Positions 31,362 to 39,019 of a DNA stretch of 64,000 nucleotides are shown piece by piece. The position numbers were made by a program, and so were the translations under genes. How positions within the stretch are numbered: the first letter of the stretch is position 1; each line of letters opens with the position of its first letter. The stretch lies in assembly GCF_058153355.1 (NCBI RefSeq), contig NZ_CM177019.1; one strand, 5' to 3'. Below the pieces are notes generated by a model, which did no database searches, was not told where the DNA came from, and saw nothing but the letters and a program-made list of their open reading frames with translations.

Positions 31362-31387
31362 AAAAACCGGGGAAACCCGGTTTTTTA
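31362..31387 (+). terminator. Intrinsic terminator after trpS
   Basis: aaaaaccggggaaacccggtttttt. Confidence 0.8.
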
Positions 31388-31505
31388 TCCTCTTTTCGCA
31401 ACAACCCGAAAAAATGTGAAGTGCCTCGCCGTTTCCACATCTCATAGTTGCCACTTATCTTCAATTTAATGAAGATATAAATATTCACTTTATTGAAAAT
31501 TTACT

Positions 31506-32411
31506 ATGCGTCGAACGTTTATCAAAAAAGAAGGCGTCGTCATCACGACTCTGGCTCGTTATCTGTTAGGTGAAAAGTGCGGTAATCGACTGAAAACCAT
31601 AGATGAACTGGCAACTGAATGCCATTCATCGGTTGGTCTGACACAGGCCGCATTGAAAACACTGGAATCTGGCGGCGCGATACGGATAGAACGCCGTGGG
31701 CGCAATGGCAGTTATCTGGTGGAAATGGATAACAAAGCGCTGCTGAGTCATGTGGATATCAATAACGTTGTGTGTGCCATGCCTTTGCCCTATACCCGCT
31801 TGTACGAAGGTTTAGCAAGCGGGCTGAAAGCCCAGTTTGATGGCATTCCTTTTTACTATGCGCATATGCGCGGCGCGGATATTCGTGTGGAGTGTTTACT
31901 TAACGGCGTGTATGACATGGCGGTGGTTTCCCGACTGGCGGCGGAAAGTTATCTCACGCAAAAAGGGTTATGCCTCGCGCTGGAGTTGGGGCCGCATACC
32001 TACGTTGGCGAGCACCAGTTGATTTGCCGTAAAGGCGAGTCCGCAAACGTGAAGCGCGTGGGGCTGGATAACCGTTCGGCGGATCAGAAAATCATGACCG
32101 ATGTCTTTTTTGGCGATAGTGATGTGGAACGAGTCGATCTCTCTTATCACGAGAGTTTACAACGCATTGTTAAAGGCGATGTTGATGCTGTTATCTGGAA
32201 CGTGGTGGCAGAAAACGAACTGACCATGCTGGGATTAGAAGCGACGCCGCTCACAGACGATCCGCGATTTTTACAGGCCACCGAAGCCGTGGTTTTGACG
32301 CGTGCCGATGATTACCCAATGCAACAACTGCTGCGTGCAGTGGTTGATAAACAGGCCCTGCTTGCCCATCAACAACGAGTGGTGAGTGGGGAACAGGAAC
32401 CCAGTTATTAA
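31506..32411 (+). CDS. yhfZ: Putative transcriptional regulator YhfZ
   Basis: 301-aa ORF; the N-terminus is HTH-like; occupies the K-12 yhfZ position next to trpS. Confidence 0.8.
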   Translation: MRRTFIKKEGVVITTLARYLLGEKCGNRLKTIDELATECHSSVGLTQAALKTLESGGAIRIERRGRNGSYLVEMDNKALLSHVDINNVVCAMPLPYTRLYEGLASGLKAQFDGIPFYYAHMRGADIRVECLLNGVYDMAVVSRLAAESYLTQKGLCLALELGPHTYVGEHQLICRKGESANVKRVGLDNRSADQKIMTDVFFGDSDVERVDLSYHESLQRIVKGDVDAVIWNVVAENELTMLGLEATPLTDDPRFLQATEAVVLTRADDYPMQQLLRAVVDKQALLAHQQRVVSGEQEPSY

Positions 32412-32427
32412 ATGAAAGGCATCTGAA

Positions 32428-32790
32428 ATGGAAACCAGACTCAACCTGCTTTGCGAGGCAGGCGTTATTGATAAGGACATCTGCAAAGGCATGATGCAGG
32501 TCGTTAAGGTACTGGAAAGCGAATGCCATTTGCCAGTGCGCAGTGAGCAAGGAACCATGGCGATGACGCATATGGCGAGTGCACTGATGCGCAGTCGCCG
32601 TGGTGAAGAAATAGAGCCGCTGGATAACGAATTGCTGGCAGAGCTGGCGCAATCCAGCCACTGGCCAGCCATTTTGCAATTGCATCAGGTGTTGTTGAAG
32701 GAATTCGCGCTGGAAGTTAACCCGTGTGAAGAAGGCTATTTGCTGGCCAACCTTTATGGATTATGGATGGCTGCTAACGAAGAGGTTTGA
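32428..32790 (+). CDS. yhfY: PRD-domain-like protein YhfY
   Basis: 120-aa ORF, second gene of the yhf cluster. Confidence 0.8.
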   Translation: METRLNLLCEAGVIDKDICKGMMQVVKVLESECHLPVRSEQGTMAMTHMASALMRSRRGEEIEPLDNELLAELAQSSHWPAILQLHQVLLKEFALEVNPCEEGYLLANLYGLWMAANEEV

Positions 32791-32873
32791 GGCTCCCGAC
32801 AAATCCACGTCGCACAACCTAAATATTCAAAAAAATGAATGTTTAATTCAAGGAACAGAAACGAGGCAACAAG

Positions 32874-34037
32874 ATGTTTGTAGAAGCATTGAAACGCCAG
32901 AACCCGGCACTGATTTCCGCCGCACTAAGATTGTGGCAACAGGGCAAGATCGCCCCGGACAGTTGGGTAATCGACGTGGATCAGATACTGGAAAACGGTA
33001 AGCGGCTGATTGAGACGGCGCGGCTTTACGGTATTGAACTGTATCTGATGACCAAACAGTTCGGTCGTAATCCGTGGTTGGCAGAAAAACTGCTGGCGCT
33101 GGGCTACAGCGGCATTGTGGCGGTGGATTACAAAGAGGCACGAATCATGCGCCGCGCAGGTTTACCGGTGGCGCATCAGGGGCATCTGGTACAAATCCCT
33201 TGTCATCAGGTTTCTGACGCCGTTGAACAGGGCACCGACGTCATCACCGTGTTTACACTCGACAAAGCGCGGGAAGTTTCTGCGGCAGCGGTGACGGCCG
33301 GGCGGGTCCAGCCTGTGCTGCTCAAAGTTTATAGCGACGATGATTTTCTTTATCCGGGGCAGGAGAGCGGTTTTGCACAGCATTCGCTGCATGAGGTGGT
33401 TGCTGAAATCCAGAAACTACCGGGGTTACATTTAGCCGGATTAACCCATTTCCCTTGCCTGCTATGGGATGAGGCTGCCGGGAAAGTTTTGCCAACACCG
33501 AACCTCCAGACGCTGGTCAATGCTCGTAACCAACTTCTGAAGTCTGGAGTTGTACTTGAGCAATTAAACGCGCCTTCAGCGACCAGCTGCACTTCGCTGC
33601 CATTACTGGCGGAATACGGTGTGACTCATGCCGAACCCGGCCATGCGCTGACGGGGACGATTCCGGCAAACCAGCAGGGCGACCAACCTGAACGTATCGC
33701 CATGCTTTGGCTGAGCGAAATTTCCCATCACTTCCGTGGCGACAGCTACTGCTACGGCGGCGGTTATTACCGTCGTGGTCACGCGCAACATGCGCTGGTA
33801 TTTACACCAGAAAATCAAAGCATTACTGAAACATATCTCAAAGTCGTAGATGACAGCAGTATCGACTACACCCTGCCGCTGGCAGGCGAGTATCCGGTGA
33901 GCAGTGCAGTGGTGCTCTGTTTTCGCACGCAGATTTTTGTCACCCGTAGCGATGTGGTGCTGGTGTCCGGTATTCACCGTGGCGAACCGGAAATCGTTGG
34001 TCGTTATGACAGTCTTGGAAGCTCTCTGGAGGCGTAA
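32874..34037 (+). CDS. yhfX: Putative PLP-dependent enzyme YhfX (alanine racemase-like fold)
   Basis: 387-aa ORF in conserved order. Confidence 0.8.
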
Positions 34038-35263
34038 TGGCGCGATTTGTGGTGTTAGTGATTGATAGCTTTGGCGTAGGGGCAATGAAAGATGTCACGT
34101 TGGTGCGTCCGCAGGATGCCGGGGCGAATACCTGTGGTCACATCCTGAGCCAGTTGCCGCATTTGCAGCTACCAACGCTGGAGAAAATGGGGCTAATCAA
34201 CGCATTAGGTTATGCGCCTGGCGATATGCAGCCGTCAGACTCCGCAACCTGGGGTGTGGCAGAGCTGCAACATGAAGGTGGCGATACCTTTATGGGGCAT
34301 CAGGAAATTTTAGGCACGCGCCCGTTACCGCCGCTGCGGATGCCCTTTCGCGATGTGATTGACCGTGTTGAACAGGCATTAGTCACCGCTGGCTGGCGGG
34401 TTGAGCGCCGTGGCGAAGAGTTGCAATTTCTGTGGGTCAATCAGGCGGTTGCGATTGGCGATAATCTCGAGGCGGATTTAGGCCAGGTCTATAACATCAC
34501 CGCCAATCTCTCTGTGATCTCTTTTGACGACGCAATCAAAATTGGTCGTATCGTGCGTGAGCAGGTACAGGCCGGTCGGGTCATTGCATTTGGCGGCCTG
34601 TTAACTGACAGTCAGCGCATTCTCGATGCCGCAGAAAGCAAAGAAGGGCGCTTTATTGGCATCAATGCGCCGCGTTCTGGCGCTTATGACAACGGTTTCC
34701 AGGTCGTACATATGGGCTATGGCGTCGATGAAAAAGTGCAGGTGCCGCACCAACTGCATCAAGTGGGCGTGCCCACGGTGCTGGTGGGTAAGGTGGCAGA
34801 TATCGTCAGCAATCCTTATGGCGTGAGCTGGCAAAACCTGGTGGATAGCCAGCGGATTATGGATATCACCCTCGACGAATTTAACACGCATCCGACGGCG
34901 TTTATTTGCACCAATATCCAGGAAACCGACCTCGCTGGTCACGCAGAAGACGTCGCACGTTATGCCGAACGTTTGCAGGTCGTTGACCGTAACCTTGTCC
35001 GGCTTGTTGAGGCGATGCAGCCAGATGATTGCCTGGTCGTGATGGCGGATCACGGTAACGATCCGACCATTGGTCACAGCCACCATACCCGTGAAGTAGT
35101 GCCAGTGCTGGTTTATCAGCAAGGGCTGGTCCACACGCAACTCGGTGTGCGCACCACGCTTTCTGATGTGGGGGCTACCGTGTGTGAATTTTTCCGTGCG
35201 CCACCGCCACAAAATGGTCGCTCTTTTCTTTCCTCCCTCCGGTTTGCAGGAGACACCCTATGA
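34037..35263 (+). CDS. yhfW: Putative phosphopentomutase-family mutase YhfW
   Basis: 408 aa; the start overlaps the yhfX stop (TAATG). Confidence 0.8.
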
Positions 35264-36138
35264 GTTTTGATCCGACGGGCTTCACCCTCGCCCATGAGCA
35301 TCTGCATATTGATCTCTCCGGCTTTAAAAACAACGTGGACTGCCGCCTTGATCAGTATGCGTTCATTTGCCAGGAGATGAACGACCTGATGGCACTGGGT
35401 GTGCGTAATGTGATTGAGATGACCAACCGTTACATGGGGCGCAATGCACAATTTATGCTCGATGTAATGCACGAGACGGGGATCAACGTGGTGGCCTGCA
35501 CCGGTTATTACCAGGACGCGTTTTTCCCGCAACATGTGGCGACCCGCAGCGTGCAGGAACTGGCGCAGGAGATGGTCGATGAAATTGAACAGGGTATCGA
35601 TGGCACGGAGCTGAAAGCCGGGATCATCGCGGAGATCGGCTCCAGCGAAGGAAAGATTACGCCGCTGGAAGAGAAAGTTTTTATTGCCGCCGCGCTGGCA
35701 CATAACCAGACCGGACGCCCGATCTCCACGCATACGTCGTTCAGCACGATGGGGCTGGAGCAATTGGCTCTGTTGCAAGCCCACGGAGTTGATCTTTCGC
35801 GCGTCACCGTTGGTCACTGCGATCTGAAAGACAACCTCGACAACATTTTGAAGATGATCGATCTCGGCGCGTATGTGCAGTTCGACACCATCGGCAAGAA
35901 CAGTTACTACCCGGACGAAAAGCGCATTGCGATGCTCCACGCGCTACGTGACCGTGGTTTGCTGAACCGCGTCATGCTGTCGATGGATATTACGCGCCGC
36001 TCCCATTTAAAAGCCAACGGTGGTTATGGCTATGACTATTTATTGACCACCTTTATTCCGCAATTGCGCCAGTCAGGATTCAGTCAGGCCGATGTGGATG
36101 TGATGTTACGTGAAACTCCCTCTCAATTTTTCCAATAA
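35260..36138 (+). CDS. php: Phosphotriesterase homology protein
   Basis: 292 aa starting [20 protein letters not shown] (metal-binding HxH); overlaps the yhfW end. Confidence 0.9.
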
Positions 36139-36148
36139 GGACAGACTC

Positions 36149-36502
36149 ATGAAAAAGATTGGTGTTGCAGGCTTACAGCGTGAGCAGATTAAAAAAACCA
36201 TTGAAGCGACGGCTCCTGGCTGTTTTGAAGTTTTCATTCATAACGACATGGAAGCGGCGATGAAGGTGAAATCCGGGCAACTGGATTACTACATCGGCGC
36301 GTGTAATACCGGTGCGGGCGCGGCATTGTCGATTGCCATCGCGGTGATTGGCTATAACAAAAGTTGCACCATTGCCAAGCCGGGCATTAAAGCGAAAGAC
36401 GAGCATATCGCCAAAATGATCGCCGAAGGGAAAGTGGCGTTTGGGCTATCCGTTGAGCATGTCGAACACGCGATTCCGATGCTGATTAACCATCTGAAAT
36501 AA
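36149..36502 (+). CDS. yhfU: Uncharacterised protein YhfU
   Basis: Start taken at the internal MKKIGVAGLQREQIKK (117 aa), which avoids a long overlap with php. Confidence 0.75.
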   Translation: MKKIGVAGLQREQIKKTIEATAPGCFEVFIHNDMEAAMKVKSGQLDYYIGACNTGAGAALSIAIAVIGYNKSCTIAKPGIKAKDEHIAKMIAEGKVAFGLSVEHVEHAIPMLINHLK

Positions 36503-36513
36503 AAGGCACGACT

Positions 36514-37818
36514 ATGGATCTGTATATTCAGATTATCGTGGTGGCGTGCCTGACGGGTATGACATCGCTTCTGGCGCATCGCTCGGCAGCCGTTTTTCAT
36601 GACGGTATCCGCCCGATCCTGCCGCAACTGATTGAAGGCTATATGAACCGTCGTGAGGCGGGGAGTATCGCTTTTGGTCTGAGCATTGGTTTTGTGGCCT
36701 CGGTGGGGATCTCTTTTACCCTGAAAACCGGGCTGCTCAACGCATGGTTACTCTTTCTTCCTACCGATATCCTCGGCGTACTGGCGATAAACAGCCTGAT
36801 GGCGTTTGGCCTTGGTGCACTCTGGGGCGTACTGATCCTCACCTGCCTGCTGCCGGTAAACCAGCTGCTGACCGCGCTACCGGTGGATGTATTAGGTAGT
36901 CTGGGGGAATTAAGCTCGCCAGTGGTTTCAGCTTTTGCACTGTTCCCGTTGGTGGCGATTTTCTACCAGTTTGGCTGGAAGCAAAGTCTGATCGCCGCCG
37001 TGGTAGTGTTGATGACCCGTGTGGTGGTAGTGCGCTATTTCCCGCATCTCAATCCGGAATCCATCGAAATCTTTATTGGCATGGTGATGCTGCTGGGGAT
37101 CGCGATTACTCACGACCTGCGTCATCGTGATGAAAATGATATCGATGCCAGCGGTATGTCGGTGTTTGAAGAACGCACGTCCAGGATTATTAAAAACTTA
37201 CCCTATATCGCCATCGTAGGGGCGCTGATTGCCGCCGTTGCCAGCATGAAGATTTTTGCTGGTAGTGAAGTGTCGATCTTCACCCTGGAGAAAGCATATT
37301 CCGCAGGCGTAACGCCGGAACAATCACAAACGCTGATCAACCAGGCGGCGCTGGCGGAATTTATGCGCGGGCTTGGCTTTGTGCCTTTGATTGCCACCAC
37401 GGCCTTAGCCACCGGCGTATATGCAGTTGCGGGCTTTACCTTTGTTTATGCGGTGGGCTATCTCTCGCCGAATCCGATGGTTGCGGCGGTATTAGGCGCA
37501 GTGGTTATTTCGGCAGAAGTCCTGTTACTTCGTTCGATCGGCAAATGGCTGGGACGCTACCCATCGGTACGTAATGCGTCGGATAACATCCGTAACGCCA
37601 TGAATATGCTGATGGAAGTGGCTCTGTTGGTCGGTTCGATTTTCGCAGCAATTAAGATGGCGGGCTATACCGGATTCTCTATCGCGGTTGCCATTTACTT
37701 CCTCAACGAATCTCTGGGCCGTCCGGTACAGAAAATGGCGGCACCGGTCGTAGCAGTAATGATCACCGGCATCCTGCTGAATGTTCTTTACTGGCTTGGT
37801 CTGTTCGTTCCGGCTTAA
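36514..37818 (+). CDS. yhfT: Putative inner-membrane transporter YhfT
   Basis: 434-aa polytopic membrane ORF. Confidence 0.8.
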   Translation: MDLYIQIIVVACLTGMTSLLAHRSAAVFHDGIRPILPQLIEGYMNRREAGSIAFGLSIGFVASVGISFTLKTGLLNAWLLFLPTDILGVLAINSLMAFGLGALWGVLILTCLLPVNQLLTALPVDVLGSLGELSSPVVSAFALFPLVAIFYQFGWKQSLIAAVVVLMTRVVVVRYFPHLNPESIEIFIGMVMLLGIAITHDLRHRDENDIDASGMSVFEERTSRIIKNLPYIAIVGALIAAVASMKIFAGSEVSIFTLEKAYSAGVTPEQSQTLINQAALAEFMRGLGFVPLIATTALATGVYAVAGFTFVYAVGYLSPNPMVAAVLGAVVISAEVLLLRSIGKWLGRYPSVRNASDNIRNAMNMLMEVALLVGSIFAAIKMAGYTGFSIAVAIYFLNESLGRPVQKMAAPVVAVMITGILLNVLYWLGLFVPA

Positions 37819-37829
37819 GGAAGGCACCT

Positions 37830-38915
37830 ATGAAGACGTTTCCTTTGCAAAGCCTGACGCTTATTGAAGCGCAGCAAAAGCAGTTTGCGTTGGTGGATAC
37901 GATTTGCCGCCATTTTCCCGGCGCGGAGTTTCTTACCCGCGGTGATTTGGGCTTAACGCCGGGACTGAATCAACCGCGTATTACTCAGCGTGTGGAGCAG
38001 GTGCTGGCTGACGCGTTTCATGCGCCAGCGGCGGCGCTGGTACAGGGCGCGGGTACTGGAGCGATTCGTGCGGCGTTGGCGGCTTTGCTCAAACCGGGGC
38101 AGCGTCTTCTGGTGCATGACGCGCCTGTTTACCCGACGACTCAGGTCATTATTGAGCAGATGGGGCTGACACTTATCACTGCTGATTTCAACAACCTGTC
38201 GGCGCTTAAACAGGCCATTGAAGAGCAACAACCAGATGCCGCGCTGGTGCAGCATACGCGCCAGCAGCCGCAGGACAGCTATGTACTGGCAGATGTGCTG
38301 GCAACGCTGCGCGCAGCAGGTGTTCCAGCCTTAACCGATGACAACTATGCGGTGATGAAGGTGGCGCGCATTGGCTGTGAATGCGGGGCGAATGTCTCGA
38401 CATTTTCCTGCTTCAAGCTATTTGGGCCAGAAGGTGTTGGCGCGGTGGTAGGCGATGCTGATGTTATTAACCGTATTCGCGCCACGCTCTACTCCGGCGG
38501 CAGCCAGATTCAGGGCGCGCAGGCGTTGGAAGTCTTGCGTGGGCTGGTATTCGCGCCAGTGATGCACGCGGTACAGGCGGGGGTATCTGAGCGGTTGCTG
38601 GCTTTACTTAACGGTGGCGCGGTGGCGGAAGTTAAAAGCGCCGTTATTGCCAATGCACAGTCGAAGGTGTTGATTGTGGAGTTTCATCAACCGATTGCCG
38701 CCAGAGTGCTTGAAGAGGCGCAAAAGCGCGGCGCGTTGCCTTATCCGGTCGGCGCAGAGTCAAAATATGAAATCCCGCCGCTCTTTTATCGACTTTCCGG
38801 AACGTTTCGTCAGGCGAATCCGCAATTAGAACATTGTGCAATTCGCATTAACCCGAATCGCAGCGGTGATGAGACGGTATTGCGGATTTTGCGCGAGAGT
38901 ATTGCCAGCGTTTAA
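37830..38915 (+). CDS. yhfS: Putative PLP-dependent aminotransferase-like protein YhfS
   Basis: 361-aa ORF, last gene of the yhf cluster. Confidence 0.8.
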   Translation: MKTFPLQSLTLIEAQQKQFALVDTICRHFPGAEFLTRGDLGLTPGLNQPRITQRVEQVLADAFHAPAAALVQGAGTGAIRAALAALLKPGQRLLVHDAPVYPTTQVIIEQMGLTLITADFNNLSALKQAIEEQQPDAALVQHTRQQPQDSYVLADVLATLRAAGVPALTDDNYAVMKVARIGCECGANVSTFSCFKLFGPEGVGAVVGDADVINRIRATLYSGGSQIQGAQALEVLRGLVFAPVMHAVQAGVSERLLALLNGGAVAEVKSAVIANAQSKVLIVEFHQPIAARVLEEAQKRGALPYPVGAESKYEIPPLFYRLSGTFRQANPQLEHCAIRINPNRSGDETVLRILRESIASV

Positions 38916-39019
38916 TTCTGGGAACGATGTTTTCGCAGAGGATGGAGAAAAATACGCCCTCGGAAAATTCAGAGGGCGTTAGCTCATTAAATCGGTGTTA
39001 GCCGATTTCTGTCAGAGAC

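Follow-up and report, generated by a model that had tools for sequence, protein, structure and literature searches.

The window (the whole stretch of 64,000 nucleotides that was analysed) carries eight intact open reading frames on the plus strand between positions 31506 and 38915, namely yhfZ, yhfY, yhfX, yhfW, php, yhfU, yhfT and yhfS (table 1). The ORF listing and a junction check gave intergenic spacings of 16, 83, −1 (TAATG), −4 (ATGA), 10, 11 and 11 nt from yhfZ to yhfS; the original prediction of eight co-directional genes, with a TAATG junction and a 4-nt overlap, was thus reproduced in its coordinates. A longer GTG-initiated frame for yhfU, starting at 36110, was judged an over-extension. 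The same eight genes, under the same names, were found in the best E. coli match and in K-12, and the block (at least 80% coverage) was present in 5059 of 5426 complete E. coli genomes (93%). All eight genes had the same length as in K-12 and none contained an internal stop. Considering this prevalence and integrity, the arrangement is not due to chance. Codons differing from the K-12 cassette were mostly synonymous (344, against 85 non-synonymous, about 4:1), and YhfU and YhfT were 100% and 99.3% identical to their K-12 counterparts. We regard the yhf cluster as an intact cassette for catabolism that is kept by purifying selection, and the catabolic character proposed for it earlier was supported.

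Table 1. Genes and control features of the yhf cassette and its boundaries (positions of the window)
Feature	Position	Strand	Description
trpS intrinsic terminator	31362..31385	+	10-bp perfect stem, then T-run; upstream limit of the yhf unit
Possible CRP half-site	31415..31430	+	TGTGA-N6-TC; putative
Palindrome A	31456..31477	.	TATCTTCA-N6-TGAAGATA; predicted YhfZ operator
Palindrome B	31483..31498	.	ATTCA-N6-TGAAA; predicted YhfZ operator
yhfZ	31506..32411	+	regulator: GntR-type HTH (HTH_41) and YhfZ_C ligand-binding domain
yhfY	32428..32790	+	stand-alone PRD domain, invariant His48-x3-Ala52-x2-Arg55
Palindrome C	32821..32844	.	AAATATTCA-N6-TGAATGTTT; yhfY-yhfX gap; predicted YhfZ operator
yhfX	32874..34037	+	fold-type III PLP enzyme: alanine-racemase-like N domain and YhfX_C (Pfam)
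yhfW	34037..35263	+	phosphopentomutase-like metalloenzyme, alkaline-phosphatase superfamily (Pfam Metalloenzyme)
php	35260..36138	+	phosphotriesterase-family binuclear metal hydrolase (Pfam PTE, 479 bits)
yhfU	36149..36502	+	DUF2620; short RpiB/LacAB-fold protein, invariant Cys52-x-Thr/Ser54
yhfT	36514..37818	+	polytopic membrane permease, PF10797
yhfS	37830..38915	+	fold-type I PLP enzyme, distant from Cys/Met gamma-lyase family (Pfam)
Hairpin between convergent yhfS and yhfL	38954..38979	.	downstream limit of the yhf unit

Three conserved TTCA-N6-TGAA palindromes were found, ahead of yhfZ and ahead of yhfX. Palindrome A has perfect 8-nt arms, is kept in six genera and is centred 24 bp from palindrome B. 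The core of palindrome C, an exact ATTCA-N6-TGAAT match, was invariant in six genera with divergent flanks. A palindrome precedes yhfX at 9 of the 13 enterobacterial loci examined, and the motif was about 22-fold enriched upstream of cassette genes. Because palindromes occur before yhfZ and again in the 83-nt gap between yhfY and yhfX, two control regions are likely, not one simple operon; of the operon first described, the compact co-directional layout stood. The TGTGA and TC at 31415–31430 were unchanged across six genera while their flanks diverged, and from the known consensus we infer a possible CRP half-site. A consensus promoter scan gave no sigma-70 promoter for the control region ahead of yhfX; ahead of yhfZ its only match was a weak one on the minus strand, overlapping the yhfZ start. 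A terminator-like match within yhfY (32445–32462) lacks a T-run and was taken as chance. The stable hairpin beyond yhfS (MFE −25.5 kcal/mol, z = −2.6) is primarily the yhfL terminator, because its T-run lies on the minus strand.

Each of the protein types originally named was matched by Pfam and NCBIfam. YhfZ matched PF14502, PF14503 and the NCBIfam model YhfZ_full (374 bits), and its C-terminal domain is that of PDB 2OZZ, titled "hypothetical protein". YhfY matched TIGR03582 (E = 2.5e-6), and its orthologues matched the Pfam PRD domain (PF00874). Its H48, A52, R55 and E101 were present in 50 of 50 sequences; a His at the second site occurred in 32 of the 50, the window protein having Asn there. 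No sequence relative of YhfY was found in the PDB. PRD domains are classically regulatory, and transcription regulators containing them include the BglG/LicT and MtlR/LevR types. YhfY resembles these in its site-1 His-x3-Ala-x2-Arg motif and in lying next to a regulator gene (yhfY adjoins yhfZ in 41 cassettes). Unlike them, it is a separate protein of 120 residues with no fused DNA- or RNA-binding domain, and its partner is a GntR-type HTH protein with a periplasmic-binding-protein-like domain.

The catalytic residues of the four enzymes Php, YhfW, YhfX and YhfS were all invariant. YhfX corresponds to PDB 4KBX ("uncharacterized"); Lys61 was conserved in 52 of 52 sequences, and its profile matches were to alanine racemase and D-threonine aldolase only (E about 1e-4). 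YhfW matched DeoB structures (E about 1e-31), and its D10, D83, T/S84, D298, H302, D338, H339 and H350 were invariant in 58 sequences; the two-metal ligands and Thr nucleophile of the alkaline-phosphatase type are present in its core. Nevertheless, YhfW fell below the DeoB equivalog cut-offs (TIGR01696, 142 vs. 341 bits; NF003766, 180 vs. 256 bits), and among the scanned genomes the cassette was never found at true DeoB loci (score below 150 to YhfW), whereas YhfW loci almost always had it. A match to PRK12383 was rejected as proof of DeoB identity, this model being the YhfW family under a borrowed name. Php structures exist (PDB 1BF6, 4LEF), and the closest solved relatives are archaeal PTE-like lactonases. 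The binuclear metal centre of its TIM barrel (H12, H14, E125, H158, H186, D243) was conserved in 49 of 49 sequences, and the basic residues R61, K213, R222 and R246, also conserved, would suit a phosphate group. Php scored below the equivalog cut-offs for OPH (100 vs. 500 bits) and phospho-furanose lactonase (97 vs. 630 bits). YhfS is PDB 4J8L ("uncharacterized"), with D170 and K196 in 48 of 48 sequences; its profile matches to gamma-lyases had E values of about 1e-11 to 1e-9, and it matched the MJ0158 family weakly (E = 2.6e-4).

YhfU has the RpiB/LacAB isomerase fold. Its Cys52 (53 of 53 sequences) and Thr/Ser54 (Thr in 44, Ser in 9) align with the CGTG motif of RpiB. At the family level there was no PF02502 match, profile E values to RpiB were 0.09–1.2 with an hhalign probability of 4%, and among the invariant residues of YhfU there was no conserved counterpart of the residues used by RpiB in addition to Cys and Thr. 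Moreover, YhfU has 117 residues against 149 in RpiB, and most of the RpiB C-terminal part is absent. Its kinship with RpiB is supported by structure and motif position; direct sequence comparison with E. coli RpiB was not significant. The YhfT family comprises only 305 representative clusters. Its AF2 model is confident (pLDDT 95.9), no solved fold matching it was found, and a weak-hit Pfam scan of 58 YhfT homologues revealed no EIIC or other transporter family. An internal repeat received weak support (hhalign probability 54%). The yhfU and yhfT genes were adjacent 53 times, often overlapping, so that the pairing is nearly absolute; YhfT occurred without DUF2620 at loci L004, L092 and L093/L094. 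For the "DUF protein" and "transporter" of the original prediction, more can now be said: the first has the RpiB fold, the second is a permease with no solved fold, and this pair has a tie to HPr and Enzyme I.

This tie came from the distribution of the cassette, whose loci were scanned with YhfW as seed, YhfT alignments having no sufficiently conserved stretch. The complete cassette was found again in Enterobacterales, Vibrionaceae, Pasteurellaceae, many Firmicutes, Olsenella, one Streptomyces and one spirochaete, and its genes are shuffled only between four fixed pairs (yhfZ-yhfY, yhfU-yhfT, yhfX-yhfW and php-yhfS). Vibrio and some enterobacterial cassettes do without yhfS. An HPr gene adjoins the cassette at seven unrelated loci, four of which also carry Enzyme I, and at none of 28 control loci. 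Neither the cassette nor its recurrent neighbours contained an EIIA family, the sole His-bearing candidate there being the PRD protein YhfY; a kinase was never part of the cassette in the loci examined. Cof-type HAD phosphatases lie beside some cassettes, and one distant cassette (L096) has a GlmS-like gene for a GlmS/NagB-II-type SIS enzyme, the sole such case. The cassette neighbours point to uptake via the PTS relay.

The yhfZ–yhfS cluster is an already known orphan operon that has now become more testable. In agreement with the orphan status first suggested, no substrate for the cassette was found in the literature searched, and neither a phenotype nor an inducer was reported there. In the K-12 RefSeq annotation every product is named "putative" or "uncharacterized". 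Crystal structures cover four of the eight proteins (the YhfZ C-domain, YhfX, Php and YhfS), with PDB titles that are uncharacterized, hypothetical or homology-only; even so, the best-studied bacterium still has no account of this pathway. The Php structure was reportedly solved in the late 1990s, and the enzyme has lacked a substrate ever since. In the literature, yhfW occurred in proteomic, antibiotic-screen and pathway-legend lists, none of which gave a function, and a paper of January 2026 still gave YhfW as uncharacterized. A gap-filling assignment of yhfW was discarded (E = 0.47), and literature matches to "b3379" were to a strain name. Homoserine lactone/AHL, muramic delta-lactam and D-alanyl teichoic fragments were weighed as substrates, as were mannityl opines, pantothenate and aminoaldonic lactones; the sequence data do not discriminate among them, and none is asserted.

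Considering these data, we tentatively propose, with a confidence that falls a little short of even, that the cassette serves a YhfZ-controlled, PTS-linked breakdown of an amine-bearing sugar, sugar acid or lactone, possibly pentose-like, via a phosphorylated intermediate. The cassette would consist of four two-gene modules. In the first, the GntR-type repressor YhfZ and YhfY would control the two regions bearing the palindromes, the invariant His48 of YhfY coupling the switch to the PEP-phosphotransferase relay. In the second, the permease YhfT and its cytoplasmic partner YhfU would import the compound; the lack of a kinase in the cassette would be explained if HPr donates the phosphate during or right after uptake. 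In the third, an anionic intermediate, which would probably be a phosphorylated lactone or ester, would be opened or hydrolysed by Php; on the amino-acid-like centre freed in this way, YhfS would carry out a PLP step. In the fourth, YhfW would move the phosphoryl group, and central metabolites would arise from another PLP reaction, catalysed by YhfX (an epimerisation, elimination or aldol cleavage). The earlier guess of an amino-sugar or sugar–amino-acid substrate is compatible with the data, which include the SIS enzyme at L096. In a more specific form, which we regard as unlikely, YhfY, YhfU and YhfT would constitute an unrecognised type of PEP-dependent phosphotransferase uptake system with His48 and Cys52 as phosphocarriers that feed a permease of a fold absent from solved structures. 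The four-enzyme pathway supplied by it would be new and would receive an amine-bearing sugar derivative in phosphorylated form. If the transporter module is a new PTS branch, it would be an addition to a system with a list of families that has not changed for decades; if not, the search is still narrowed for a nutrient of many gut, soil and marine bacteria. Taken together, cross-phylum cotravel, the repeated presence of an own HPr/Enzyme I, an RpiB-fold DUF protein with a conserved Cys and a control-region palindrome convert a vague orphan operon into concrete experiments.

The cassette could also be catabolic and independent of PTS transport, a possibility on the unlikely side. YhfT would then be an ordinary secondary carrier and YhfU a soluble aldose-ketose isomerase of the RpiB type, while YhfY and HPr would exert only catabolite control over YhfZ; phosphate would come from a kinase encoded elsewhere or from import of an already phosphorylated compound. 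RpiB isomerases have the fold and Cys-x-Thr motif seen in YhfU, YhfT shows no similarity to EIIC and lacks DUF2620 at the loci mentioned above, and both the regulatory tradition of PRD domains and the HAD phosphatases beside some cassettes agree with this reading. However, yhfU and yhfT stay together while all other genes move, which is how subunits rather than a pathway enzyme typically behave, and YhfU is short of most of the RpiB C-terminal part. Dedicated HPr/Enzyme I copies in seven lineages exceed the need of catabolite control, and the cassette never includes a kinase.

It is quite improbable that yhf and frl are parts of a single hub that handles glycated (Amadori-type) amino acids, the yhf substrate being a relative of fructoselysine. 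The statement on the position of frl was correct: in K-12, frlABCDR lies between yhfL and yhfS, and the two systems share this neighbourhood, a GntR-family regulator and, for frl, an amino-acid–sugar conjugate as substrate. The SIS enzyme at L096 belongs to the GlmS/NagB-II/FrlB family, and an accessory amidase resembles the asparaginase step of fructose-asparagine use. In the window, however, yhfS is directly followed by yhfL and cysG and frl is absent, as it is from 39% of complete E. coli genomes (present in 3297 of 5426, against 5059 with yhf), and no frl homologue was found within 10 kb at about 60 other cassette loci; the proposed hub and co-occurrence were not supported. Weak frlB-, frlD- and frlR-like matches near cassettes proved to be unrelated family members, e.g., a GlmS-like protein. 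Whereas frl has a kinase and an SIS deglycase, neither a ketosamine kinase nor an SIS deglycase was found in the window cassette; the systems have no protein family in common in the window, and the core pairs yhfX-yhfW and yhfU-yhfT have no counterpart in known Amadori pathways. The frl genes are a variable island inherited independently of the yhf cassette.

Of similarly low probability is a ribosyl (nucleoside-derived) amino-acid conjugate as substrate, e.g., an S-ribosylhomocysteine-like thioether, processed by pentose-type YhfW, YhfU and Php with a C-S lyase-like YhfS. Each of YhfW, YhfU and Php has homologues that act on pentofuranose phosphates, the family nearest to YhfS is the Cys/Met gamma-lyases, and the gene of a YhfT homologue (27% identical) is separated by 13 bp from one for an MTA/SAH nucleosidase, which scored above its curated cut-off. 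Nevertheless, that link comes from one distant locus where the other cassette genes are absent, the homologies are all far under equivalog thresholds, and some cassettes dispense with YhfS, as in Vibrio. A decaying or silent relic, functionless in the window lineage, would accord with the lack of a reported phenotype and of a consensus promoter, but is very improbable given the eight intact frames with their synonymous excess and near-identical YhfU and YhfT, the retention of every catalytic residue and the prevalence of the cluster in E. coli.

The proposed PTS-linked breakdown has partial parallels in known systems. In the ula regulon of E. coli, the PTS permease UlaABC delivers a phosphorylated L-ascorbate lactone, which the lactonase UlaG opens. 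The yhf proposal would share phosphorylation on entry without a kinase gene, a metal-dependent hydrolase acting on a phosphorylated ring, a repressor of its own and possibly a CRP site. In contrast, YhfT has no match to UlaA, yhf has no recognisable EIIA, the ula hydrolase belongs to the metallo-beta-lactamase family and Php to the PTE family, and ula lacks the PLP enzymes and mutase that the yhf cassette has. Phospho-furanose lactonases of the PTE family, such as Lmo2620/Bh0225, have the fold and binuclear metal centre of Php and act on pentono-1,4-lactone 5-phosphates. MS53_0025 and Mag6390 are counted among them where they are cited in PMC10971088. Php differs in its low equivalog score (above), and its gene partners YhfS, YhfX and YhfW are unrelated to the clusters of these lactonases. 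In the dga system of Salmonella, a D-glucosaminate PTS permease is combined with DgaE, a PLP-dependent ammonia-lyase acting on the amino-sugar-acid phosphate. Its PTS is of the mannose family and its enzyme SelA-like, YhfS having only the weak match noted above to the related MJ0158 family, and unlike yhf it has no mutase, lactonase or RpiB-like protein. Nevertheless, dga resembles the proposed yhf pathway in joining PTS uptake to a PLP reaction whose substrate is an amine-bearing sugar acid in phosphorylated form, and we count it as a further likeness that dga products enter central metabolism through enzymes encoded elsewhere.

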